Assembly: GCA_001871815.1 (NCBI GenBank)
Contig: MNVP01000077.1
Coordinates: forward strand, 439 to 44,448
Reading direction: 5' to 3'
Length of the DNA: 44,010 bases
Source of the DNA: Candidatus Omnitrophica bacterium CG1_02_40_15
Lineage (GTDB): Bacteria > Omnitrophota > Gorgyraeia > Gorgyraeales > Gorgyraeaceae
Shown here piece after piece: positions 19,076 through 37,521 of the stretch. Numbering within the stretch: position 1 is the first letter of the stretch; every line of letters begins with the position of its first letter. The notes below the pieces were generated by a model. The model was given only the letters and a program-made list of their open reading frames with translations. It was not told the origin of the DNA and searched no databases. Position numbers and translations under genes: made by a program.

Positions 19076-21121
19076 TTAACAGATTTTCCGCAAAAATGAC
19101 CAGATTATGCTAAAACTGACTTGTTTACAGCTAGGAATCTTGGCATTCCACCTTGGCAAGATACAGGACGATTGGTAGTTAAGTTCGTAGGCCCTTTCAG
19201 ACTGAGATACTGTCTTGACGGGAAAATACCATATGTTTTCCGGCTTTTTAGAAAATGTAAAATCGATATCTAATTCCTTGCCTGAATCCTTTATTGAGAA
19301 TGAGCTAGTTTCGGAAACCGAACCTTTTTCATTGAGGTTGCTTAGGATCTTATCGCCCGTAGAATAATTATATCTGTCTGAATTTAAATAAGGCATTGTC
19401 AGGTTAAATTCCACTCCAAAAATCGCATCAATCGTGCCCTTGCTTAAATTTTTTAAACTATACTCGATTTCTATCTGCGACTTACCTTTTAATTTTATCC
19501 CCTTAATAATAGCTATAGTTTTACCGCCCACTTTGCCTTTTCTTGTAAGCGTAATCTTATCCAATTCTATTTTAGCTTTATAACTGGCATTTACAAAATC
19601 GCCAAGCTCTTCATATTTCAAATCTATAAAATCGTCTATTGTAACGTTTTCGGAAATAAAATGATCTACAAGGCACCCTTTTATATATTTATCGTACACA
19701 AATTTGTCTTTTAATCCAGGATCAACAGCCTTTATGTCTTCATGGATTGTGCGTACAACATTAGGATCGCTTGACTGGCCCATCTTTGCGAGTATTTTCT
19801 TATGATATTCCTCTTCATGCCTTGCAAGGCTATTAACCAGATTAATGGATAATGGTTTATAATCTAATTCTCTTATAATTCCGCCTCTTTGGGGATCGAT
19901 ATAAATTGAAAAATTATTGCTTTCAATAATAAAAGACTTGGTCTTATCTTTATATAAATCAACCTTTTTTATATCTTCCCAATCTTTTTTATCTTTATGC
20001 AGCATTTCGTCTGCTATTTTGTCAGCATTTATAAGATGTTCGTAAATCGCTTTTCTAAGATGGTAAAGATAAAGCCCGCCGAATACGCCGTGCCAGTAAG
20101 CGCAGTTGCACTGGCCTTTGTATAATTCGCGTAGAGCTAACTTTTTACGCTCTATGCTCCATGCTCCATGCTCTATGCCATTAATTTTTTCGCTCACATA
20201 ATGCATTTTACTCGCCATATGATTGGTTTCCGGGTATTTCTTAAGAAAATTCATCCAGGATCCGTGCGACCACTCCATCATCTCCTGGTATGACGCCTCT
20301 GGAATCTTTATTTTTTTTGTAGGGACAGAACAATGTTCTGTCCCTACAAGATAATCTGAGAACTTAATTGTTTCCAACCAGTCCTTATTCTTCATGAGCT
20401 CTTCAAAAAACTTATTAAGCCAGCCTTGTTTATAAACCCAATCATGAGTAAAAGGCCACTCCCCGAATTTTTCGGCATCATCGCCATATGTAAGTAGGGG
20501 GCGGTCATTGACCGCTCCTACTTGCTTGAAATAATTTATTAACTCATGAGGCATCTTAAAAGGTATCATATAACGAAGTTTTTTGCTGGAAGGGAATATA
20601 GCTATTTCCTTTCCTTTCTCTCCTGTTGTAAAATATCCAAACAGCTCATCTTCTTTTAAACCGGCCATTATAAAATGTTCATCATCCAGTATTGAATATT
20701 TCATGCCGGCCCTATTAAAATCTTTGCTGAGCTCAGGCGACCAGACCCTTTCAGGGGTCCACATGCCCTGAACTTTTTGCTTGAATCTTTTTTTAATATA
20801 CTCTGTCATCATCTTTATCTGGCCAGCTCTATCTTTCTCCGGTATGCTTATAAAAATAGGCTCGTAATACCCTCCGCCTATAATCTCCACCTGGCCTCTA
20901 TCTACCATCGCTTTAACCCTGTCTAAAAAATCAGGGTGATTGTCTTCGAAATAATCCAGAAGGCATCCGGAAAAATGAAACGCCATTTTTATATCTGGAT
21001 ATCTTTCGAATACGTCCAGGAAACTTTTGTAGCAATTTTGATAAGCCCTTTCTACAATGTTATCAAAATTACCTATAGGCTGGTGAAAATGTAGACACAT
21101 CCCAAAATATATTTTATTCAT
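19076..21121 (-). CDS. GH57 alpha-amylase / 4-alpha-glucanotransferase-type enzyme
   Basis: 681 aa. All five GH57 conserved regions are present: HFHQP, GQVEIIGGGYYEP, WTPERVW (Glu nucleophile), GDDAEKFG (Asp acid/base), CNCAYWHGVFGG. Confidence 0.88.
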   Translation of the reverse strand: MNKIYFGMCLHFHQPIGNFDNIVERAYQNCYKSFLDVFERYPDIKMAFHFSGCLLDYFEDNHPDFLDRVKAMVDRGQVEIIGGGYYEPIFISIPEKDRAGQIKMMTEYIKKRFKQKVQGMWTPERVWSPELSKDFNRAGMKYSILDDEHFIMAGLKEDELFGYFTTGEKGKEIAIFPSSKKLRYMIPFKMPHELINYFKQVGAVNDRPLLTYGDDAEKFGEWPFTHDWVYKQGWLNKFFEELMKNKDWLETIKFSDYLVGTEHCSVPTKKIKIPEASYQEMMEWSHGSWMNFLKKYPETNHMASKMHYVSEKINGIEHGAWSIERKKLALRELYKGQCNCAYWHGVFGGLYLYHLRKAIYEHLINADKIADEMLHKDKKDWEDIKKVDLYKDKTKSFIIESNNFSIYIDPQRGGIIRELDYKPLSINLVNSLARHEEEYHKKILAKMGQSSDPNVVRTIHEDIKAVDPGLKDKFVYDKYIKGCLVDHFISENVTIDDFIDLKYEELGDFVNASYKAKIELDKITLTRKGKVGGKTIAIIKGIKLKGKSQIEIEYSLKNLSKGTIDAIFGVEFNLTMPYLNSDRYNYSTGDKILSNLNEKGSVSETSSFSIKDSGKELDIDFTFSKKPENIWYFPVKTVSQSERAYELNYQSSCILPRWNAKIPSCKQVSFSIIWSFLRKIC
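20319..20347. repeat. REP-like palindrome, copy 5 (in frame inside GH57-681)
   Basis: gtagggacagaaca-a-tgttctgtccctac. Translated as VGTEHCSVPT. Differs from copy 3 by a compensated pair (C/G to A/T). Confidence 0.85.
20494..20521. repeat. REP-like palindrome, copy 6 (in frame inside GH57-681)
   Basis: gtagggggcggtcattgaccgctcctac. Translated as VGAVNDRPL, directly N-terminal to the GDDAEKFG catalytic region. Confidence 0.8.
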
Positions 21122-27463: not shown

Positions 27464-28708
27464 TTATTTTGGAACTGTATTGCGCTCGACTTTTGTTGTT
27501 ATTCTCTTTGTTTCTACTTTATCATTCGAAGTTGCAGTAAAAGGCAGATCTATTTTCCCATCAGGAAGCGCAAGCCTCATGCTGAAAGTTCCGTCCGGCC
27601 TGAGATCTACTTTTTTATCCCCAAGCCTCACCTCTGCATCAGGCTCTGTGCGGCCATAAACAATAAGTTCTGCCCCTATTTCAAAAAAGAATTTGCGTTT
27701 TTTATCCGGCTGGATAAATTCGCTTGCGCCGCCTTGAAGATTTTCGCTTCCACCTAGATATGTAAATTCAGAGGCGCCAATCATAACTTTCCTGCCAAAT
27801 TTAGCTCCTTCGAGCCTCTTAAAATAAAGCAGGCCTTTCCATTCGCTTTCTGACATCCTGGAATACAAATATTTATATATGCGTTTTCTGGAAATACGCG
27901 AAAATAACCTATTTCTTAATAAAGGAGAAAATTTACTGTAATACGCTCTTAAATCTGCCTGGCTAAGATAAATCTTTCTTCTTCTGGATACAGTAGGGAA
28001 CGGCCGCGGCCGTTCCCTACTAAACCTGCCTGCTGTATCATATTGAACAGCGTTTTCGCCTCTATTGAATGTAGGGGACGGCCGCGACCGTCCCCTACCT
28101 GCTTTTTCAATAGCAATCTCATCGCTAATATCCATCCATATCTCTTCAAATCTGTTTGACGAACTGGAGCGGGGGGTATGCACAAAGTTAGACCTGGCCA
28201 TTGGAAAAAATCTTCCGGAAGTATGGACTATGCCTATCTCTCCGCAATACGACACATTGTCATTCCAAAGGCTTATATACCAATTATTGGAATAACGGCC
28301 TACTTCTATATCAAACCAATGATTGGCATTAAAACCATTAAAATCTTTATATGTTATATCATACATGCGCACGATAAATTTGGCGCCGTCCAGGTTGCCG
28401 CCCAATTGTTTCTTCACATTTTCTATTGAACTCTCGGCAATTTCCCAGTAAGCGTATATCCAGAAAGGATCCTTTGGTATCAACGTAATCCTTGTTATAG
28501 TATCGTAAGAAGGAAGTTCGTATTCATTTATCGTTATATTTGGCGCGCTTTTATATTCTTTTATTGCGCAGGATGGCTCTATCACGGCAACAGAAAGCTT
28601 TCTACGGACTGCTTTTCTTTTTACAGCCTTTACAATAGCCTCTCTTCCATCTTTATAAATGCGCTCTATGGAATTTCTTTTTTTAATTTTTGGTTTTTTA
28701 ACGGCCAT
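27464..28708 (-). CDS. DUF4912-like protein of unknown function
   Basis: 414 aa. The block ITLIPKDPFWIYAYWEI...IVRMYDIT resembles DUF4912. A basic, probably disordered middle carries two REP-like insertions. C-terminal beta-rich region. Confidence 0.65.
   Translation of the reverse strand: MAVKKPKIKKRNSIERIYKDGREAIVKAVKRKAVRRKLSVAVIEPSCAIKEYKSAPNITINEYELPSYDTITRITLIPKDPFWIYAYWEIAESSIENVKKQLGGNLDGAKFIVRMYDITYKDFNGFNANHWFDIEVGRYSNNWYISLWNDNVSYCGEIGIVHTSGRFFPMARSNFVHTPRSSSSNRFEEIWMDISDEIAIEKAGRGRSRPSPTFNRGENAVQYDTAGRFSRERPRPFPTVSRRRKIYLSQADLRAYYSKFSPLLRNRLFSRISRKRIYKYLYSRMSESEWKGLLYFKRLEGAKFGRKVMIGASEFTYLGGSENLQGGASEFIQPDKKRKFFFEIGAELIVYGRTEPDAEVRLGDKKVDLRPDGTFSMRLALPDGKIDLPFTATSNDKVETKRITTKVERNTVPK
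27993..28020. repeat. REP-like palindrome, copy 9 (in frame inside DUF4912 gene)
   Basis: gtagggaacggccgcggccgttccctac, perfect. Translated as RERPRPFPT. Confidence 0.85.
28071..28098. repeat. REP-like palindrome, copy 10 (in frame inside DUF4912 gene)
   Basis: gtaggggacggccgcgaccgtcccctac. Translated as RGRSRPSPT. Confidence 0.85.
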
Positions 28709-29858
28709 AAATGTCCAGTACCTGGTCAGCTACAACATCCCATGAAAAAGCGGTTTCAACTGCGATCCTGCCGTTAGCGCCCATCCATCTGGCGTGGTCA
28801 AAATCTGAAAATGCAGCGCCTATGCCCCATGCTATTGATTCAGGATTTGGATAAACCTTTAAACCTGTTATGTCATGCCATATTATTTCTCCTGGCCCGC
28901 CGTTTGAAGTAGCTATCACAGGTTTTCCAGCGCTCCATGCTTCTAATAAAACTATCCCAAAAGGTTCGTTTCTCGAAGGTATACACACAACGTCTGTTGC
29001 CTTGTAAAGATCAGAAAGCTTCCATCCATTATTAAAGCCTATAAACCTTGTAGCGTGATGAACACCAATCTCTTTTGCCCTATCCTCCACGCCCCAGCGC
29101 ATCTCTCCGTCTCCCACAAAAACAAACTTTGCGTTATTGTAATATTTAAGTATGTGCGGGATAGCCTCTATTAAAAGGTCCGGGCCTTTTTGATAAACAA
29201 TCCTGCCGACAAAAAGCGCCATTGGGTCCATTGGCCCTATTCCATAATAACGCCGGACTGCTCCAGCGTCTATCCACCCGTCAAAATTTCTGTAATTGAC
29301 TCCATTATATACTACGTCCGCTTTCCAATCAGGCACATTATACATCCACTGTATTTCCCCTTTAAGGGCCCGGGATACAGCTATTACATGGTCAGCGCAG
29401 TATGTGCCATGCCTTTCATGGTCCCTTATCCTGGCGGAATTGCCATTATGAAAATTATTCCCGCACCTGCCATATTCAGTTGAGTGCATGGTAAGAACAG
29501 CCTTGCTTGGCCTGGCCTGTTTTATCCAAACCATTGCGTTTGAGGTCAGCCAGTCATGGCTATGAATCACGTCAAAAGGGCCCGTGACGCTTTCTGTCTG
29601 GAAAAATGCATCCACAAAAGAGCGGCACATATTATTTATTTCTTCTACAAAATCCGGGCTCTGGTGAAAATGGCACCTATGATAATGCACACCGTCAATG
29701 CGTTCATACCATGCCTGATTGGGGTTACCAGCTCGCGTAAAAACATGGACCTCATTGCCCTTGCGCTCAAGGCCGCATGCAAGTTCTGTAACATGCACGC
29801 CTACCCCGCCCACGCAAATAGAATGCATGGATTCCCACGAAAATATGGCTATCCGCAT
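28698..29858 (-). CDS. GT4-family glycosyltransferase, glycogen-synthase-like
   Basis: 386 aa. MRIAIFSWESMHSICVGGVGVHVTEL... N-terminus. C-terminal PSRNEPFGIVLLEAWSAGKPV (E-x7-E context). 11-nt overlap with the DUF4912 gene. Confidence 0.8.
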   Translation of the reverse strand: MRIAIFSWESMHSICVGGVGVHVTELACGLERKGNEVHVFTRAGNPNQAWYERIDGVHYHRCHFHQSPDFVEEINNMCRSFVDAFFQTESVTGPFDVIHSHDWLTSNAMVWIKQARPSKAVLTMHSTEYGRCGNNFHNGNSARIRDHERHGTYCADHVIAVSRALKGEIQWMYNVPDWKADVVYNGVNYRNFDGWIDAGAVRRYYGIGPMDPMALFVGRIVYQKGPDLLIEAIPHILKYYNNAKFVFVGDGEMRWGVEDRAKEIGVHHATRFIGFNNGWKLSDLYKATDVVCIPSRNEPFGIVLLEAWSAGKPVIATSNGGPGEIIWHDITGLKVYPNPESIAWGIGAAFSDFDHARWMGANGRIAVETAFSWDVVADQVLDIYGR

Positions 29859-29865
29859 ATTTTTT

Positions 29866-29933
29866 CAGCTTTAAGCTATAAGCTTTAAGCTATAAGCTTT
29901 TTCTTACAGCTTACAGCTTAAAACTTACAGCTG
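29866..29933. repeat. Heptamer-periodic hairpin, AGCT type, copy c
   Basis: c agcttta agctata agcttta agctata agctttt tcttac agcttac agcttaa aacttac agctg. Fills the CBM48-GT4 spacer. Confidence 0.8.
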
Positions 29934-29943
29934 AATTTGTGTT

Positions 29944-30219
29944 TTATAATTCTATTACTGAATTTTCTGAGCCGAAAGTGTTTACTGTGAAAAGATTATT
30001 TAAAGGGTCTCTCTGCCATTGGCCGTCAATCAAATATTTATACTCATAACGTCCAGGATTAAGAGTCAAATCTCTTGCCCATACTCCATCTTTAGATTTC
30101 TTAAGACTGCTGCTGGACGCATCCCATGAATTGAAATCTCCTGCCAGGCGCACATCATTTGCAGTTGGCGCGCTTATCTTAAAAACCACCCTTTTTTTTG
30201 AACATTTCTTAATAGCCAT
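29944..30219 (-). CDS. Stand-alone CBM48 / AMPK-beta-like glycogen-binding domain protein
   Basis: 91 aa. VVFKISAPTANDVRLAGDFNSWD...KDGVWARDLTLNPGRYEYKYLIDGQWQRDPLN is the CBM48 pattern. SD AGGAGGGGG upstream. Confidence 0.78.
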   Translation of the reverse strand: MAIKKCSKKRVVFKISAPTANDVRLAGDFNSWDASSSSLKKSKDGVWARDLTLNPGRYEYKYLIDGQWQRDPLNNLFTVNTFGSENSVIEL

Positions 30220-30309
30220 TTCCCCCTCCTTTTTTTATCGCGTGACACCAATCACGTGAACCCAAATGATACCAGAAAGCCCAGCATTTGTAAATAGGTA
30301 TAAGTACCT

Positions 30310-30337
30310 ATTTTAGGGAACTTTTTTCCCTACACAA
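30310..30337 (-). promoter_or_regulatory. Promoter candidate for CBM48/glycogen operon, overlapping a minimal GTAGGGAA..TTCCCTA palindrome
   Basis: Minus strand: TTGTGT (30337-30332), 16-nt spacer, TAAAAT (30315-30310). The spacer AGGGAAAAAAGTTCCC is the core of a 20-nt mini version of the REP-like element (30314-30333). Confidence 0.35.
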
Positions 30338-30350
30338 GATATAGTGGTTA

Positions 30351-31001
30351 TTATATAGTAGTTATACCTTCTTTGAGCGCGTATCTAATGAGGTCTGCCT
30401 GGCGGTGTATTCCAAGTTTCTGCATTATATTATTTCTGTGGGCAAGCGCGGTCTTTAAAGAAATCTTAAGCTGTGCCGCAACTTCCTTATTTATATAGCC
30501 TTCTGCTATAAGCTGGAGAACTTCTCTTTCTCTCCCAGTAAGACTGACTATCTTTTTTTCTCCTATCTTCTGGCCTCTTGAATCAATGTAATCCTGTATT
30601 ACAAATGTGGATATTCTGGGACTAAGAAAATATTCATTCTTGTAAACTGCTCGTATGGCCTGAATGATCTCATCAGCTGCTGAATCTTTTAACACATACC
30701 CTTTTATCCCCAAGCTTAAAGCCCTTTCTATAAATGCCCTGTTATCATGCATGCTTAGTATAATCACCTTATTCCTTGGGTTAATCTGCATTATCTGGCT
30801 GGATGCCTCAAGGCCATTTAATATAGGCATGGTTATATCAATTATAAATATATCCGCTGAATCATTCTTTGCGATATCCACAACCTCTTTACCATTTGAC
30901 GCCTCTTTGATAACCTTTATATCTTGTTCCTGAGATATCACAGCGCTTAAACCCTGCCTTACTATCGCATGGTCATCCGCTAAAACCACATCTATAGCCA
31001 T
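30351..31001 (-). CDS. Response regulator, NarL/FixJ family (REC + LuxR-type HTH)
   Basis: 216 aa. Acidic pocket VVLADDHAIV and phospho-acceptor IFIIDITMP. C-terminal LTGREREVLQLIAEGYINKEVAAQLKISLKTALAHRNNIMQKLG. Confidence 0.92.
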   Translation of the reverse strand: MAIDVVLADDHAIVRQGLSAVISQEQDIKVIKEASNGKEVVDIAKNDSADIFIIDITMPILNGLEASSQIMQINPRNKVIILSMHDNRAFIERALSLGIKGYVLKDSAADEIIQAIRAVYKNEYFLSPRISTFVIQDYIDSRGQKIGEKKIVSLTGREREVLQLIAEGYINKEVAAQLKISLKTALAHRNNIMQKLGIHRQADLIRYALKEGITTI

Positions 31002-31019
31002 AATTATTCCTTTGCCATT

Positions 31020-31047
31020 GTAGGGAACGGTCGCGACCGTTCCCTAC
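31020..31047. repeat. REP-like palindrome, copy 11 (contains the TAG stop of the histidine kinase)
   Basis: gtagggaacggtcgcgaccgttccctac, perfect. The CTA at 31044-31046 is the kinase stop. Differs from copy 9 by a compensated C/G to T/A pair. Confidence 0.85.
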
Positions 31048-31721
31048 GCTTCTTCAATAATTTGGAAAGTTGCATTTATCTTTGTCCCGTTTTTAGATTT
31101 AGACTGCAGTAAAAACTTTCCATTCAATAAATCCACCCGCTCTCTCATCCCGCGTAAACCAAGCTTATCCGCATTTACCTCTTTGAAAAATGCCTCTGCG
31201 TCAAACCCTATTCCATCGTCTTCTATTGTAAAACTTATTTCTCCTTCTTTAAGCAACAAATCTATCTTTACATTTTTTGCCTTTGCGTGCTTTACAATAT
31301 TATTAAATGCCTCTTGTATGACCCTGTACAGGGTAATCGCCACCTCTTCTTTTATATGAATATCGCCTATATTTTCCTTGAATTTTATATTTAAAGGATA
31401 CGACTTTGTGTAATGCGAGAAAAGTTCGCGCAAGACTGACGGAAGGCCAAGCATGCCTAACTCTGCAGGCCTCAGGTCTATAAAAAGCGCTCTGATTTTA
31501 TCTGCCGTATTAGCTAAGATTATCTTTGCGTCTTTTATTACGTGGAGGGCTCTATCGAGATTATGTTTCGTTATCTCTTTTTCAATTATGCTCAATGCTG
31601 AGCCAAGAGATACTGAAAACTGGCCTATCTCGTCATGAAGATCCCGGGATATCCTGTGCCTTTCCTCTTCCTGGATAGCTAGTATCTTCTTTGAAAATTC
31701 CCTTGCCTCAGCATCTTCCAT
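31044..31721 (-). CDS. Sensor-less histidine kinase (HisKA_3 + HATPase_c only)
   Basis: 225 aa. H-box EEERHRISRDLHDEIGQ begins at about residue 18. N-box EAFNNIVKHA. DDGIGF and GLRGMRERV. No TM or sensor domain. Confidence 0.87.
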   Translation of the reverse strand: MEDAEAREFSKKILAIQEEERHRISRDLHDEIGQFSVSLGSALSIIEKEITKHNLDRALHVIKDAKIILANTADKIRALFIDLRPAELGMLGLPSVLRELFSHYTKSYPLNIKFKENIGDIHIKEEVAITLYRVIQEAFNNIVKHAKAKNVKIDLLLKEGEISFTIEDDGIGFDAEAFFKEVNADKLGLRGMRERVDLLNGKFLLQSKSKNGTKINATFQIIEEA

Positions 31722-31730
31722 AAAATTTAT

Positions 31731-31904
31731 TTAACAAGGTCCAGCAGGATTAGGGCATCCGCCAGCAGTGCATGCTGGGCACAGATAATCAGGGGACTGT
31801 GCATATGCTGGAACATCGCCTTTAAACTTATCATTTAAAACTTCGCTTTTAACAATTGGCTTCACATAACGCTTCTTGGCTTGTTTTTCTATCTTCCTTG
31901 TCAT
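31731..31904 (-). CDS. Candidate RiPP precursor peptide (57 aa, Cys/Pro/Gly-rich C-terminus); absent from ORF track
   Basis: Minus strand: AGGAGG-cgcaaa-ATG... encodes MTRKIEKQAKKRYVKPIVKSEVLNDKFKGDVPAYAQSPDYLCPACTAGGCPNPAGPC, TAA at 31731-31733. Directly downstream of the radical SAM/SPASM gene. Confidence 0.6.
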   Translation of the reverse strand: MTRKIEKQAKKRYVKPIVKSEVLNDKFKGDVPAYAQSPDYLCPACTAGGCPNPAGPC

Positions 31905-32971
31905 TTTGCGCCTCCTTTCTTGTTTTGAAAATCAAATCAGATTTATTTTCATTTATATATTTATCTGTAAAATATGATGATTCGCACATAGCTTTTACTG
32001 GTTTAAGAGCCCTGTTTTCAAGGAGCTGGGCAGCCGGGCATATTGAACATACTGCTATCAGCTTACATTTATTACACTTATAAATATCCTTGAGTTTAAT
32101 TTCCCGCCATTGTTTTAACACGCTTGAATTATGCCACAAATCTTTAAAAGAAGCCTTAAGTAAACTGCCTGCGCTTACCTGAGATAAGATACAAGGCATT
32201 AGCTCGCCATACGGGTTTATTCCAAAAGTATTATGCGCGGCGCTGCAAGCGCTTAGTTCAAGCATGTCACCTTTGCCTCTGGCAAATTTATTATTTTTCA
32301 TTTTCGTAAACGCGCCATCTTTGTTCATAAACGCCATATAATTAGAAAAATCTTTCCCGGAGATACTCATATGTCTATTTTTTTTACTTCCATCTCTCAT
32401 AGGAATTATTATATGGCCAAAAAAACAATTCGTTACATCAAGCCCTTCTGCGAGTTTTTGTATCTCTCTATAAAAATTGAAAGTATCTTTAAAAAGGGTT
32501 ACCTTAAGAATAACCGGGATCTTATAACTGCGTAAAAATCGTATAGCGTTAATCAAGGCGTTAAAAGACCCTTTTACGCCTGTAATTTTATCATGCAGAT
32601 CAGGGGTGGGGCCGTAAATACTCATATCTACGCTTCTTATATTATACCTTTTCAGCCTTTTTGCCGTTTGTGAATACTGATATGAGAAATTTTTCACGAT
32701 GGCTAGCCTCAAAAATATCAAATATATCCCGGCGCATAAACATTTCTCCGCCTGTAAAAGATATAACAAAAGTTCCGTTATGGGCGATATCTTTCAAAAT
32801 ATTTTTTATTTGTCCGGCATTAAGAGGCTGGGAACAATGATCAGCATTAAAACAGTGGCGGCATCGCAAATTGCACTTATATGTCAGCTCAAATATGCAT
32901 CTTATCGGGAAATTCTGCTTGTCGCATTTTTCCATCAAACTTCTATATATAGTGTCCGGCGCGTTTCTCAT
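31849..32971 (-). pseudogene. Radical SAM / SPASM-domain peptide maturase, split by a +1/-1 frameshift
   Basis: Two overlapping ORFs (32642-32971 and 31849-32769). The N-terminal part has CNLRCRHC (CxxxCxxC), FTGGE and VFTNG. The C-terminal part has VDMSIYG..., C-x12-G-x4-C (CSAAHNTFGINPYGELMPC) and C-x2-C-x5-C-x2-C (CNKCKLIAVCSIC). The frames switch at the T5 run 32658-32662. Confidence 0.8.
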
Positions 32972-32972
32972 A

Positions 32973-33245
32973 TTATTTTATGAATAACAGTTTGGCATTG
33001 CTCATTTCTTTTATAAAAGATTCCATATCCCTTTTCACTATTGAGCGTTCTATCTTATAATCTCTATAAACAGATGATAAAATACTCTCTATTGAAACTC
33101 ATCTGGCGCAGCTCTTCCAAATCAGCGCAGCGGTTTCATTTAAATGGTGAAACCTGTCATCAAAACTAGAATAGATAAAACATTCCCCATCTAAACTCCT
33201 GAATGGGACAGATGAATTCCGCTTGATAAGTGTTTTATGCTCCAT
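32973..33245 (-). pseudogene. PqqD-like RiPP recognition element with in-frame TGA; absent from ORF track
   Basis: MEHKTLIKRNSSVPFRSLDGECFIYSSFDDRFHHLNETAALIWKSCAR*VSIESILSSVYRDYKIERSIVKRDMESFIKEMSNAKLLFIK. The ATG (33243-33245) overlaps the upstream stop. The TAA (32973-32975) is 1 nt from the rSAM ATG. TGA at 33099-33101. Confidence 0.65.
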
Positions 33246-34071
33246 GCGTGCATATCCTGTCTAAATACAATGTTTTATTTTTTGAAAACCCCAGGATAAA
33301 ACTTGGAATTGTCTTAGCAATCCCGCAACAGTTCTTGAATATTTCGTTTCTATTTGGGTGAGGATATCCTATGCCTAATCCATGCGCATTCTGTATTAAT
33401 TTTTTCAAAGCCATTTGCATGGGCGCTGGATTGATTGTATTGTTGAAACGATTTTTTCTAAGAGAGAATATATTTTCAGCCCGGACCTTCACGTTGCAAT
33501 TTAATCCTTGATAAAAAGGCGGCCGTAAAGGCGCGCTGTAAAGGCAGTAATTGGCCCCGCCATCCTGCCTTAATAAAGCCAAATCATCATGTAAAATTGT
33601 ATAAGCCGGCGGAAGGACCTTCACTACTGTTGATTTTCCATCGCCAGATGAGCCTATGAATAATATGCCCTTATCTTTGAACATAACGCTTGAGGCATGT
33701 ATAGCAATGCCATTATAGAACGGCAAAATAAATTTATAAATTTCTCTTAGCGAAAAATGAATAAAATTAACCATCTTTTTACCGCCGCTATTTAAAAAAA
33801 TACAGCCTGTTTTAACCCTCATGTCAAAAAAACATTCCCCTTTCAATCCTACATTTGAATAATATAACGAAGTTGCGTTGCTACAGTGCGCGCTTTTATC
33901 CCGCGTTAATTTCTTTTTTGTCTGGCTAATATTAAGGTATATAACGTCTTTACGTAAATTAGAATCGCAAAATCCTTCAAAATGCGTTTTCAGTCTTTGA
34001 AATATGCCATATTTTTCGCAGGTTATAACGCAGGATATCTCCGCTATATTCAAAGAAAATTTAAGCTTCAT
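33235..34071 (-). CDS. HPr-kinase-C-terminal-like P-loop protein (HprK-related kinase)
   Basis: 278 aa. KGILFIGSSGDGKSTVVKVLPPAYTILHDDLALL matches the HprK C-domain pattern G-x-SG-x-GKS(T/E)...DD. No N-terminal HprK domain. Confidence 0.6.
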   Translation of the reverse strand: MKLKFSLNIAEISCVITCEKYGIFQRLKTHFEGFCDSNLRKDVIYLNISQTKKKLTRDKSAHCSNATSLYYSNVGLKGECFFDMRVKTGCIFLNSGGKKMVNFIHFSLREIYKFILPFYNGIAIHASSVMFKDKGILFIGSSGDGKSTVVKVLPPAYTILHDDLALLRQDGGANYCLYSAPLRPPFYQGLNCNVKVRAENIFSLRKNRFNNTINPAPMQMALKKLIQNAHGLGIGYPHPNRNEIFKNCCGIAKTIPSFILGFSKNKTLYLDRICTHGA

Positions 34072-34163
34072 AATGCCAAGTCGTCCTGTTTTTCTTAGAA
34101 TGATGCACTTCTTATATATAGTTTATCATAAAAATACAGCGAAAGAAATATATTTCTTAGTAA

Positions 34164-35342
<1,179 letters not shown>

Positions 35343-35374
35343 TTATTTTCTCTACTCTTAATGTAAATGACACT

Positions 35375-36379
35375 TTACTTTGTTGCGCACGCTTCTCTTA
35401 AGCACTTACCAGTTATTTCAGGCGATGTAGGATTTATATAGAGGCCTGAACCCCATTCAAAACCAGCTATATTTGTCAATTTAGGCATTATCTCAAGATG
35501 CCAGTGAAATTCTTCATAAACCCCGTCTCTAATAGGCGCAGTGTGAATTATAAAATTATACGCCGGGTCATTTAGCCTTGATTTCAACCTCGCAAGGATT
35601 TCTTTTAATGCGCCTGCCATATCATAAATCGCGGAATCATCTATTGATTTAAATTCAGGACTATGAGATTTTGGCAATAACCATACCTCGAATGGAAAGC
35701 GAGACACAAAAGGGCAAAATGCGATAAAATATTTATTTTCAAATACTATCCTCTCCTTTTCCTGCTGCTCCTGAGCCAGCATATCGCAGAAAACGCATCT
35801 CTCCCTGTATTTAAAATAATTCTGGGCGCCTTTTAGCTCTTCTTTAACCCTCTTTGGCACAATCGGTAGTGCCACAAGCTGAGTATGCGAATGTTCAAGC
35901 GACGCGCCCGCAGATTCCCCGTGATTTTTAAAAAGTAAAATATACCTGAATCTTGTGTCATTTTCCAGATCTATGGTCCTGGATTTATACTTTAATATTA
36001 CATTCCTTATCTCATCCTGCGTCAGGTCAGATAAGTTTTTATAATGATCTGGATTTTCAATTATTACCTCGTGCGCGCCAATACCATTTGACATGTCATA
36101 CATACCTATGCCGCGCTTGTCCAATTCGCCCTCTATCTTTAATGCAGGAAATTTATTAGAAACAACTCTGACTGTCCAGCCTGAGGTGTCGGGCTTTGTC
36201 TTAGAGTCTCTAATAACCTCTATCTCAGGAGGCGTCATCTTTTCGTTTCCCGGACAAAAAGGACATGTTCCGCCTTTTTTAGTCTGCGGCTTTATATCAA
36301 ATTCATCGCATCTTTTTGGATGCGAGACAGCTATTTCCACCCATCTTCCTGTTACTGGATCGCGTCTTAATTGAGACAT
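35375..36379 (-). CDS. GalT-like HIT-family nucleotidyltransferase (hexose-1-P uridylyltransferase / NDP-glucose phosphorylase type), catalytic motif intact
   Basis: MSQLRRDPVTGRWVEI..., zinc knuckle CPFCPGNE, GAHEVIIE, active-site HSHTQ (H-x-H-x-Q) at 35879-35893. ATG 36379 chosen. Confidence 0.85.
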   Translation of the reverse strand: MSQLRRDPVTGRWVEIAVSHPKRCDEFDIKPQTKKGGTCPFCPGNEKMTPPEIEVIRDSKTKPDTSGWTVRVVSNKFPALKIEGELDKRGIGMYDMSNGIGAHEVIIENPDHYKNLSDLTQDEIRNVILKYKSRTIDLENDTRFRYILLFKNHGESAGASLEHSHTQLVALPIVPKRVKEELKGAQNYFKYRERCVFCDMLAQEQQEKERIVFENKYFIAFCPFVSRFPFEVWLLPKSHSPEFKSIDDSAIYDMAGALKEILARLKSRLNDPAYNFIIHTAPIRDGVYEEFHWHLEIMPKLTNIAGFEWGSGLYINPTSPEITGKCLREACATK

Positions 36380-36408
36380 GTTATAATCCTTTGAAAAAAA
36401 TATTTGTC

Positions 36409-36475
36409 GGTGAAAAGTTAAAGGTTGAAGGTTTAGAACAAAAAATCTTATACCTTTCACTTTAAACCTTTCACC
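36409..36475. repeat. Heptamer-periodic hairpin, AGGT/ACCT type, copy b
   Basis: ggtgaaa agttaaa ggttgaa ggtttag aacaaaaaatcttat acctttc actttaa acctttc acc. Lies between the two GalT-like genes. Confidence 0.72.
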
Positions 36476-36492
36476 AAATTATATACTAATCT

Positions 36493-37521
36493 TTATATGC
36501 TGACCTCTTGTAAATATTTCGTCGCTTCTTCCGGAGGAGTAGGATTTATATAAAATCCTGAACCCCACTCAAAACCAGCCACCTGAGTAACTCTAGGCAT
36601 AACCTCTATATGCCAGTGATAATCTTCTTCTATTGTATGCCAGTAACCTGGCCTCTTTGTCCGCCTGAAAGGGGCTGTATGCAGCATATAATTATACGGC
36701 GGATCATTCAATACCCTTGAAAGCTTGGCAAATACTGTCTTTAAAACATTTGCCAGATCTTTTATTTCATCACCCTGTATATTCATAAAATCTGTCCTGT
36801 GGATTTTAGGCATTATCCATATCTCAAAAGGAAACCTTGAGGCAAAAGGCGCGATTGCCACAATGGTTTTTGTCTCCATTATGATCCTTGCGCCTGTTTC
36901 TATTTCCTGGCGTATAATGTCGCAGAAAATACACCTTTCTTTATATTCGAAATAAAACATGGAACCCCTGAGTTCCTCTTTGACTCTTGTAGGCGTAACA
37001 GGCGTTGCGATAAGCTGAGACCTCATGTGTTTTGTTTTGCGGCTGCCGCCTGCCTTTAACCCATGATTCTTAAATAAAAGGCAATATTTAAAACGAATGT
37101 CTTTTTCGAGTTCGCTGATGCGGTAGATAGAAGCATTAATTACATCTTGTATTTCAAGCTCTGATAACTGATATATATCAGTAAGGTGATTAGGGGACTC
37201 TACCAGCACTTCATGGGCGCCTATATTGTTCATAACATCATACATCCCGACTCCGCGCCTCTCAAGCTCCCCTTCTATCTTGAATTTCGGAGCTATGCTG
37301 GGAACAACCCTCACGCTCCAACCTGGAGTATCTTTTTTTGTGCCTGGTTTTCTTATTGCAAATATTTCCGTAGGCGTCTTCTTCTCATGGCCTTCGCAAA
37401 AAGGGCATTCCATCTCAGGCTCATCCGCATGCTTGATATTAAAATCGTTCGGCCTTTTAGCCCTCTCAGTAGATATTATAACCCATCTTCCTATTACAGG
37501 ATCTCGTCTTAATTCTGGCAT
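36493..37521 (-). CDS. GalT-like HIT-family paralogue with the nucleophilic His replaced (H-M-R-S-Q)
   Basis: MPELRRDPVIGRWVII..., CPFCEGHE, GAHEVLVE. The active-site position reads KHMRSQ (codons 37015-37029; Arg167 = AGG at 37021-23) where the paralogue has HSHTQ. Confidence 0.8.
   Translation of the reverse strand: MPELRRDPVIGRWVIISTERAKRPNDFNIKHADEPEMECPFCEGHEKKTPTEIFAIRKPGTKKDTPGWSVRVVPSIAPKFKIEGELERRGVGMYDVMNNIGAHEVLVESPNHLTDIYQLSELEIQDVINASIYRISELEKDIRFKYCLLFKNHGLKAGGSRKTKHMRSQLIATPVTPTRVKEELRGSMFYFEYKERCIFCDIIRQEIETGARIIMETKTIVAIAPFASRFPFEIWIMPKIHRTDFMNIQGDEIKDLANVLKTVFAKLSRVLNDPPYNYMLHTAPFRRTKRPGYWHTIEEDYHWHIEVMPRVTQVAGFEWGSGFYINPTPPEEATKYLQEVSI

Follow-up and report, generated by a model that had tools for sequence, protein, structure and literature searches.

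Here we describe a locus in a 44,010-nucleotide stretch of contig MNVP01000077.1 from Candidatus Omnitrophica bacterium CG1_02_40_15 (the whole stretch is hereafter called the window). It is very probably a recently inactivated four-gene cassette for a peptide that is synthesized ribosomally and modified post-translationally (RiPP), belonging to a widespread family without experimental characterization whose intact relatives would operate the mechanism proposed below. On the minus strand, gap (34164-35174) and the histidine kinase gene of a two-component pair enclose four features arranged head to tail (Table 1): a P-loop protein of the ScmC family, a discrete PqqD-type RiPP recognition element (RRE), a radical S-adenosylmethionine (rSAM) enzyme with a SPASM domain, and a Cys-containing precursor peptide. 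The PqqD and rSAM genes of the window are pseudogenes, and the ScmC and precursor genes are intact. A preliminary description of this DNA had placed four translationally coupled genes here. Their strand, their coordinates, their position between gap and the two-component pair, the 11-nt overlap of the PqqD ATG with the ScmC gene and the single nucleotide between PqqD and the rSAM ATG are all confirmed, but the phrase was an overstatement because two of the four are pseudogenes.

Precursor peptides and the conservation of the cassette

The 57-aa open reading frame (ORF) proposed earlier as the fourth gene is a genuine gene for a putative precursor peptide. AGGAGG lies 6 nt before its ATG, about 150 homologous peptides were found, and its product joins a leader of the form K-K-x-Y-x-K-P-h to a core Y-x-C-x-x-C...C with Cys at the C-terminus (GPC). 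The window copy was compared by DNA alignment with the relatives L001, L003 and L004 (86-91% identical); L002 is a relative at 42%. Among the window, L003 and L004 the DNA of the leader is nearly identical and that of the core is variable, with indels of 3, 9 and 9 nt that all preserve the frame. A homologous 54-aa ORF stands at the same position in L002, and small ORFs with the same leader accompany the distant ScmC cassettes of L008, L009/L010, L011 and L012. When eight precursor peptides from the window's clade and from distant cassettes were aligned, K-K-x-Y-x-K-P and two Cys proved invariant, and the profile made from eight peptides retrieved 106 database peptides which, together with those of 53 genome loci, amount to 154 distinct sequences. 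All but four of these (150 of 154) end in Ser, the only exceptions being in the window's clade, and 145 of 149 peptides have their last Cys 7 residues before the C-terminus. The core of the main family reads F-E-T-x-A-L-A-C-G-K-(C)...C-x6-S. The window peptide lacks both the F-E-T-x-A-L-A-C-G-K stretch and the final Ser that follows the last Cys at a distance of 7 residues; the core of its own clade, which counts about seven peptides, is Y-x-C-x-x-C-x(7-11)-C and ends at Cys. Judged by sequence, the window copy belongs to a rare, divergent Omnitrophota subclade of the precursor family. In NCBIfam, no model matches any of the precursor peptides.

The ScmC, PqqD, rSAM and precursor genes are present together in L002, L003 and L004, and the same set occurs in other gene orders, sometimes with an S24-like peptidase, in L008, L009/L010, L011, L012, L016 and L017. 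In the window, all four components adjoin one another and the peptide carries the K-K-x-Y-x-K-P leader. A 45-aa precursor of the main type was found in 54 species genomes, nearly all of them metagenome-assembled genomes of Elusimicrobiota, with one Ignavibacteria and one Acidobacteriaceae. ScmC, PqqD and rSAM/SPASM genes all lie within 5 kb of the precursor in 39 of the 54, and most of the others are cut by contig ends. Altogether, the precursor family extends over uncultivated Elusimicrobiota, Planctomycetota, Omnitrophota and Acidobacteriota. Both the gene set and the small ORF are thus conserved in related and distant genomes, and the recurrence of the same four genes in relatives shows that their arrangement is not due to chance. 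Moreover, the rSAM enzyme of L003 is 29-35% identical over its full length to those of distant cassettes (E 1e-51 to 1e-63), and the PqqD proteins of the window's clade are likewise homologous over their full length to distant-cassette PqqDs (E 1e-8 to 1e-13), which suggests that all four parts derive from one ancestral cassette.

Other arrangements were encountered in these searches. In Elusimicrobiota cassettes, the interval between the precursor and rSAM genes holds an unannotated ORF of ~96 aa, as in L016 (8207-8497), where it has no Pfam match, and in many of the loci L019-L072; in other loci it holds an S24-like peptidase. A different ScmC/PqqD system, with no rSAM gene nearby, is found at 4541-6678 of L005-L007 in the order 156-aa ORF, ScmC-like gene (P0160, from a cluster of 633 sequences), 172-aa ORF and PqqD, the 156- and 172-aa ORFs being without Pfam matches.

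The enzymes and a proposed mechanism

The first gene had been described as an HPr-kinase-like P-loop protein, which is upheld. It has the motifs H125...G140-S-S-G-D-G-K146-S-T148...H-D162-D163 (GSSGDGKST and LHDD); its top NCBIfam match is ScmC (TIGR04249, E 3e-9, 36.6 bits against a cut-off of 125), and its precomputed Pfam family is PF27840 ScmC. The matches to HprK-related kinases A and B are weaker (HprK_rel_A, E 3e-4; 20 and 16.8 bits for TIGR04352 and TIGR04355, below their cut-off of 200). The AlphaFold2 model of ScmC had a predicted local distance difference test score (pLDDT) of 85.9 and a predicted template modelling score (pTM) of 0.85 when made from a 16-sequence alignment; with only 5 close sequences the pLDDT was 41. 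The best Foldseek matches of the model were to ATP-dependent phosphoenolpyruvate carboxykinase (PEPCK; E 1.7e-10, template modelling score ~0.5), and the ScmC family profile aligned with Thermus thermophilus PEPCK (E 8e-6) across H-A-S...G-x-S-G-x-G-K-T, that is, the His and the P-loop. A PDB sequence search with the profile of the close clade yielded generic ABC-type P-loop matches only. Among 93 representatives of the ScmC family, H125 and K146 never vary, and each of G140, G145, T148 and D162 is retained in 90% or more. The conserved positions presumably match residues of PEPCK and HPr kinase/phosphorylase, namely the His that binds metal, the Lys and Thr/Ser of Walker A, and the Asp. With its P-loop, a His before and an Asp after the Walker A motif, and its likeness in fold, ScmC falls into the fold superfamily of HPr kinase/phosphorylase and PEPCK. 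The predicted fold and the conserved active-site positions suggest that it is most likely an active ATP-dependent phosphotransferase.

The ScmC clade of the window is rare: scores below 1e-30 are reached by no more than three 50%-identity clusters, against 3922 superfamily members below 1e-3; a scan of the genome collection with the clade's ScmC alignment gave no matches, and a metagenome scan added just one near-identical contig of 1 kb. A functional link between ScmC and rSAM enzyme types is supported by a natural fusion, P0131 (790 aa), in which a radical SAM domain (208-361, HxsC-like in NCBIfam) is joined to a C-terminal ScmC/HprK-like domain (624-775, a weak Hpr_kinase_C match).

The product of the second gene matches Pfam PqqD (PF05402) with 41 bits, the gathering score being 23.4, and its top NCBIfam match is the lasso PqqD chaperone lasso_PqqD_Bac with 33 bits, below the cut-off of 80; PqqD_rel_X, the companion model to the HprK-related kinases, gave 14.9 bits against a cut-off of 35. 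The third gene matches the Pfam families Radical_SAM (69 bits) and SPASM (32.8 bits) and carries both CNLRCRHC and the full set of seven SPASM (auxiliary-cluster) cysteines. Searches with profile hidden Markov models (HMMs) thus support the PqqD, Radical_SAM, SPASM and ScmC assignments of the locus, and the HprK-related A/B and PqqD_rel_X models remain below their cut-offs. CNLRCRHC (CX3CX2C) begins at residue 33 of the rSAM enzyme; when the enzyme is aligned with SkfB, the aligned part of SkfB starts at residue 107. The enzyme has no N-terminal RRE domain and, like PqqE and MftC, must rely on the separate PqqD protein. Its nearest solved structures are SkfB (E 8e-17, the closest by sequence), 5v1q and 5wgg, which we take to be SuiB and CteB, and PqqE.

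We propose the following mechanism for the intact relatives. Firstly, the 57-aa precursor would be made and its leader, K-K-x-Y-x-K-P-(I/V/L), bound by the small PqqD-type protein, as we infer from the known action of PqqD/RRE proteins and from the motif's likeness to the lasso form Y-x-x-P-x-L. Secondly, PqqD would present the Cys-containing core to the rSAM/SPASM enzyme, which would modify it at or between the conserved residues Y-x-C-x-x-C...C; the product is most likely a Cys-based thioether or another cross-link, a chemistry that is deduced and not predictable from sequence. Thirdly, ScmC would phosphorylate the peptide at the expense of ATP. The target in the main family would be the invariant C-terminal Ser, by analogy with the HPr-kinase homologues of lasso peptide clusters, and the invariance of this Ser fits the lasso-kinase model well; in the Omnitrophota subclade, the invariant Tyr or the terminal Cys are candidate targets. 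In the window genome, the first and second steps would be disabled by the W49-to-TGA change in PqqD and the 23-bp slippage deletion in the rSAM gene, with ScmC, the precursor and the sensor-less kinase/regulator pair still intact.

In the window as in L003 and L004, the histidine kinase that follows the cassette begins 9 nt past the stop codon of the precursor. The kinase gene probably shares an operon with the cassette, and the two may have a functional tie. The kinase has no input domain and is partnered by a NarL-type regulator, and no S24-like peptidase, ABC transporter or second precursor was found anywhere in the window. In the preliminary description, the missing protease and exporter were taken to favor an intracellular product, and it may be asked on these grounds whether the subclade makes an intracellular signal or cofactor instead of a secreted peptide. 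We regard this as unlikely. The absence in the window stands, but it is a weak argument, in that cassettes of the wider family frequently include an S24-like peptidase and, at one locus, adjoin an ABC transporter, and a processing protease or exporter could be encoded elsewhere. Moreover, the kinase/regulator pair does not adjoin the cassette in the 42% relative L002, and two-component systems beside RiPP clusters are generally known to regulate the cluster or immunity in most cases. It is just as speculative to regard the family as a new RiPP class that combines radical SAM cross-linking with ATP-dependent phosphorylation by an enzyme of the PEPCK/HPr-kinase fold, and in which the Omnitrophota subclade would make an intracellular signaling peptide read directly by the kinase.

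Decay of the window copy

Codon 49 of the PqqD gene is TGA in the window and TGG (Trp) in L001, L003 and L004; Trp is also found in L002. The rSAM gene lacks 23 bp in comparison with the intact relatives, in which this stretch is flanked by direct repeats (A)AACGGCA. The single AAACGGCA that remains in the window corresponds to the direct repeat that is spaced 23 bp in the relatives, and the loss of a stretch between such repeats is the signature of a slippage deletion. The deletion takes out about 8 codons past the FTNG strand and shifts the frame, and the match of a custom rSAM HMM to the window gene breaks at positions 104/108. The orthologues are intact, with 90 aa for PqqD and 360, 365 and 410 aa for the rSAM enzyme. 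The family assignments made earlier for a roughly 90-codon PqqD-like frame and for a radical SAM/SPASM gene consequently stand, but the former frame is not open and the latter gene is split into two frames; the inactivation of the copy, hinted at beforehand only by the words "repaired genes", is confirmed by the nonsense codon and the 23-bp deletion.

Both lesions are present in the ENA assemblies ERZ909571 and ERZ27293412, which are 2 SNPs apart (single-nucleotide polymorphisms). Among the assembled contigs, the TGA recurs in L013, L014 and L015 and the deletion junction in L013 and L014. Elsewhere in the window, the genes that were scanned (RecO, HisRS, GH57, GalT-like and others) show full-length matches to Pfam domains, and long uninterrupted ORFs make up the remainder, so that the damage looks specific to the cassette. 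Within the clade, the ratio of nonsynonymous to synonymous substitution rates is 0.15-0.24 for ScmC and the N-terminal part of the rSAM enzyme, 0.26-0.60 for PqqD and 0.08 for gap. Intact cassettes are under purifying selection, and the decay of the window copy therefore appears to be recent.

Several points weigh against this reading of the locus as a whole. No member of the family has had its product, its phosphorylation or its cross-link observed, and at such levels of similarity rSAM chemistry cannot be read from sequence (PMC10288494). All scores against curated families are far below cut-off, so that no function can be transferred from them. The subclade without the C-terminal Ser keeps the ScmC active site, which means either that the target of the kinase is not the terminal Ser or that it has changed in this clade. 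The clade is also tiny (three 50%-identity clusters, about seven peptides), so that its core consensus derives from few sequences. As to the lesions, they are known only from the assembly consensus of closely related samples, and the contig that represents the Logan assembly of SRR1534154 (L015) carries the TGA and ends exactly at the deletion junction, near window position 32662, so that an intact allele could coexist in the population.

This last observation bears on the suggestion that both lesions are artefacts of assembly or consensus, or minority alleles, and that the real genome has an intact cassette. Metagenome assemblies are the source of all the data, and a contig that ends as L015 does could reflect a branch in the assembly graph at which deleted and undeleted alleles coexist. 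We nevertheless find the suggestion quite improbable, in view of the recovery of both lesions in two separate ENA assemblies and of the TGA in the Logan assembly, of the 7-8-bp direct repeats that bound the deletion, as is usual in real slippage, and of the good state of the other scanned genes and ORFs of the window. Still less probable, and by a clear distance, is a cassette that works in spite of its lesions, with readthrough or recoding of the TGA and with programmed frameshifting to restore the rSAM frame. The intact ScmC, precursor, kinase and regulator and the A-run at the deletion junction (GGC-AAA-AAG-G) would be in keeping with it, but TGA is the ordinary stop of 9 of the 36 ordinary genes in the window and is for this reason not recoded; with TGG in the relatives, recoding as selenocysteine, Trp or Gly was ruled out. 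A programmed frameshift at GGC-AAA-AAG was ruled out as well: the rSAM frame requires +1, A-AAG sites favor -1, and a rescued enzyme would still be without some 8 residues past the FTNG strand.

Two insertions were noted in the rSAM genes of this clade. One, of 36 nt, lies at 31917-31952 of the window and is absent from L003 and L004; it lengthens the 3' end of the rSAM frame just before the ribosome-binding site of the precursor, and an apparent weak hairpin within it was no more stable than shuffled sequence (z 0.51) and was not significant. The other, in L004, is an in-frame insertion of 135 nt (45 codons, at ~2025-2146) between the radical SAM core and SPASM, giving 410 aa as compared with 365 aa in L003.

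Table 1. Position and state of the cassette features, the lesions and the adjoining two-component genes in the window
Feature	Position	Strand	Remarks
ScmC-family P-loop protein, PEPCK/HPr-kinase-like fold	33235..34071	-	278 aa, intact
Discrete PqqD-type RRE	32973..33245	-	90 codons, pseudogene, codon 49 is TGA
Nonsense codon in PqqD	33099..33101	-	TGA, against TGG (Trp) in relatives
rSAM/SPASM maturase	31849..32971	-	pseudogene, frames 32642-32971 (109 aa) and 31849-32769
23-bp deletion junction in rSAM gene	32662..32669	-	single AAACGGCA remaining; from alignment with L003 and L004
Putative precursor peptide	31731..31904	-	57 aa, intact, MTRKIEKQAKKRYVKPIVKSEVLNDKFKGDVPAYAQSPDYLCPACTAGGCPNPAGPC
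Histidine kinase	31044..31721	-	225 aa, HisKA_3 and HATPase_c only, no sensor domain (Pfam)
NarL/LuxR-type response regulator, partner of the kinase	30351..31001	-	Response_reg 88.9 bits, GerE 68.4 bits

The neighbors within ~4 kb of the cassette are gap, two GalT-like genes, fmt, the histidine kinase, the response regulator, a CBM48 protein and a glycosyltransferase; no lasso cyclase or B2 protease was found among them. Scans of 29800-35500 for promoters and terminators gave no signal above shuffled sequence. Two GalT/HIT-like genes (galactose-1-phosphate uridylyltransferase family) stand in tandem beside gap at 35375-36460 and 36493-37521, and genes of glycogen and sugar metabolism are abundant around it, such as those for a GH57 protein (19076-21121), a glycosyltransferase (28698-29858) and a stand-alone 91-aa CBM48 protein (29944-30219). 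For gap itself, the mechanical ORF (34164-35294) has 376 aa from a TTG start and the product in relatives and other assemblies has 336 aa; translation probably starts at the ATG at 35174 instead.

Significance and comparison with known systems

In NCBIfam, the rSAM enzyme scores highest against AhbD (109 bits) and NirJ-type models, with ScmE as second-best model (99 bits, cut-off 400) and lower scores for MftC (84 bits in a full-length alignment, cut-off 265), PqqE (73, cut-off 381) and ScmF (72, cut-off 400). That the locus is no peptide system at all, its rSAM enzyme being a cofactor enzyme of the AhbD/NirJ type and its small ORF spurious, is nonetheless barely credible, with the AhbD/NirJ scores 4-5 times under cut-off, no other heme/d1 biosynthesis genes nearby, a PqqD-type RRE in the locus, and some 150 homologues of the small ORF that keep company with all three other genes in the genomes surveyed above.

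So far, only comparative genomics has drawn attention to a PEPCK/HPr-kinase-fold enzyme in combination with an rSAM/SPASM enzyme and a discrete RRE, with no precursor or product reported. What is new is that this enzyme set is tied to a defined precursor family of ~150 peptides with an invariant leader motif and two invariant Cys, to which the family outside the window's subclade adds an invariant C-terminal Ser. The chemistry is directly testable by heterologous expression, and the prediction is specific: phosphorylation at the C-terminal Ser together with a Cys-based cross-link. Since two genes are knocked out in the window genome, the intact relatives are the ones to study; being ~87% identical, they are ready wild-type controls for the window copy, which is a natural double knockout and shows how quickly such cassettes are gained and lost. 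The value of the locus lies in the family that it has revealed and in these relatives, the window locus itself being dead. A literature search (SynChlorMet, ScmC, HPr kinase with PqqD, SPASM or RRE, and RiPPs of Elusimicrobia/Omnitrophota) returned nothing on this system, its precursor or its product, in agreement with the earlier statement that the kinase-PqqD-rSAM/SPASM combination has no characterized product, and kinases are mentioned neither in the RRE-Finder paper nor in the rSAM-RiPP compendium (PMC10288494).

The RiPP-type maturation proposed in the preliminary description is sustained in its components, namely an HprK/PEPCK-like protein, a PqqD-type RRE, an rSAM/SPASM enzyme and a Cys-containing precursor, but the mycofactocin type named there falls away. 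As in the sactipeptide and ranthipeptide systems of AlbA, SkfB, CteB and PapB, the rSAM/SPASM enzyme has a Cys-containing precursor as its partner, and SkfB is the nearest structure. The prerequisites of these systems, an rSAM/SPASM enzyme with 7 auxiliary-cluster Cys and a Cys-containing core, are present, as known here from the genes alone. In contrast to these four enzymes, in which the RRE is fused N-terminally, the cassette has a separate PqqD protein and an additional kinase-fold enzyme.

A discrete PqqD-type chaperone that serves an rSAM/SPASM enzyme acting on a short peptide is also a feature of the pyrroloquinoline quinone (PQQ; PqqA/D/E) and mycofactocin (MftA/B/C) systems. In the latter, it is the peptide's C-terminal residue on which MftC acts. 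However, the MftC and PqqE scores (84 against 265 and 73 against 381) lie far below cut-off, there is no PqqB/C or MftD/E/F, and the precursor is unrelated: an MftA peptide ends in GVY, the window peptide in GPC, and no mftD/E/F genes are among the neighbors.

The likeness to lasso peptide clusters of the paeninodin and pseudomycoidin type is of another kind, in that a P-loop kinase of the HprK/PEPCK fold adjoins a PqqD-type RRE. Moreover, the leader Y-x-K-P-x-(I/V/L) of the window family resembles Y-x-x-P-x-L, the leader motif of lasso precursors, the PqqD protein finds its best NCBIfam match in the lasso PqqD model, and precursors of the main family end in Ser. The HPr-kinase homologues of lasso clusters, which lie beside PqqD-type proteins, act on the linear precursor and phosphorylate its C-terminal Ser (PMC8498205). 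These lasso kinases are the only characterized HPr-kinase precedent beside PqqD-type proteins, and the earlier statement that HprK-related kinases beside PqqD and rSAM-SPASM genes have been noted only bioinformatically accordingly holds for the rSAM/SPASM context and not for the lasso clusters. Unlike lasso clusters, the cassette has neither a cyclase (the Asn-synthetase-like C protein) nor a transglutaminase-like B2 protease, it has an rSAM/SPASM enzyme instead, and the peptides of the window's subclade end in Cys.

The closest resemblance is to the SynChlorMet (SCM) cassette, which comprises ScmC (TIGR04249/PF27840), a PqqD homologue and the two rSAM/SPASM proteins ScmE and ScmF and has been defined by comparative genomics only. 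From the work of Haft and Basu and the TIGRFAM descriptions, its precursor has reportedly never been identified. As in SCM, the best family for the first gene is ScmC, with a discrete PqqD protein and an rSAM/SPASM enzyme adjoining, and ScmE is the second-best model for the latter; unlike SCM, there is one rSAM gene in place of two, and the precursor family is identified here. The ScmC score of 36.6 bits lies below the equivalog level of at least 125, and the single rSAM enzyme reaches 99 and 72 bits where ScmE and ScmF require 400; a PqqD homologue is present within the cassette (PF05402, 41 bits), its nonsense codon notwithstanding. The cassette thus falls short of the score thresholds for SCM proper, for the HprK-related kinases A and B, for mycofactocin and PQQ, and for all named rSAM families. 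It is most aptly regarded as a degenerate copy from a divergent subclade within an SCM-like RiPP family without experimental characterization.

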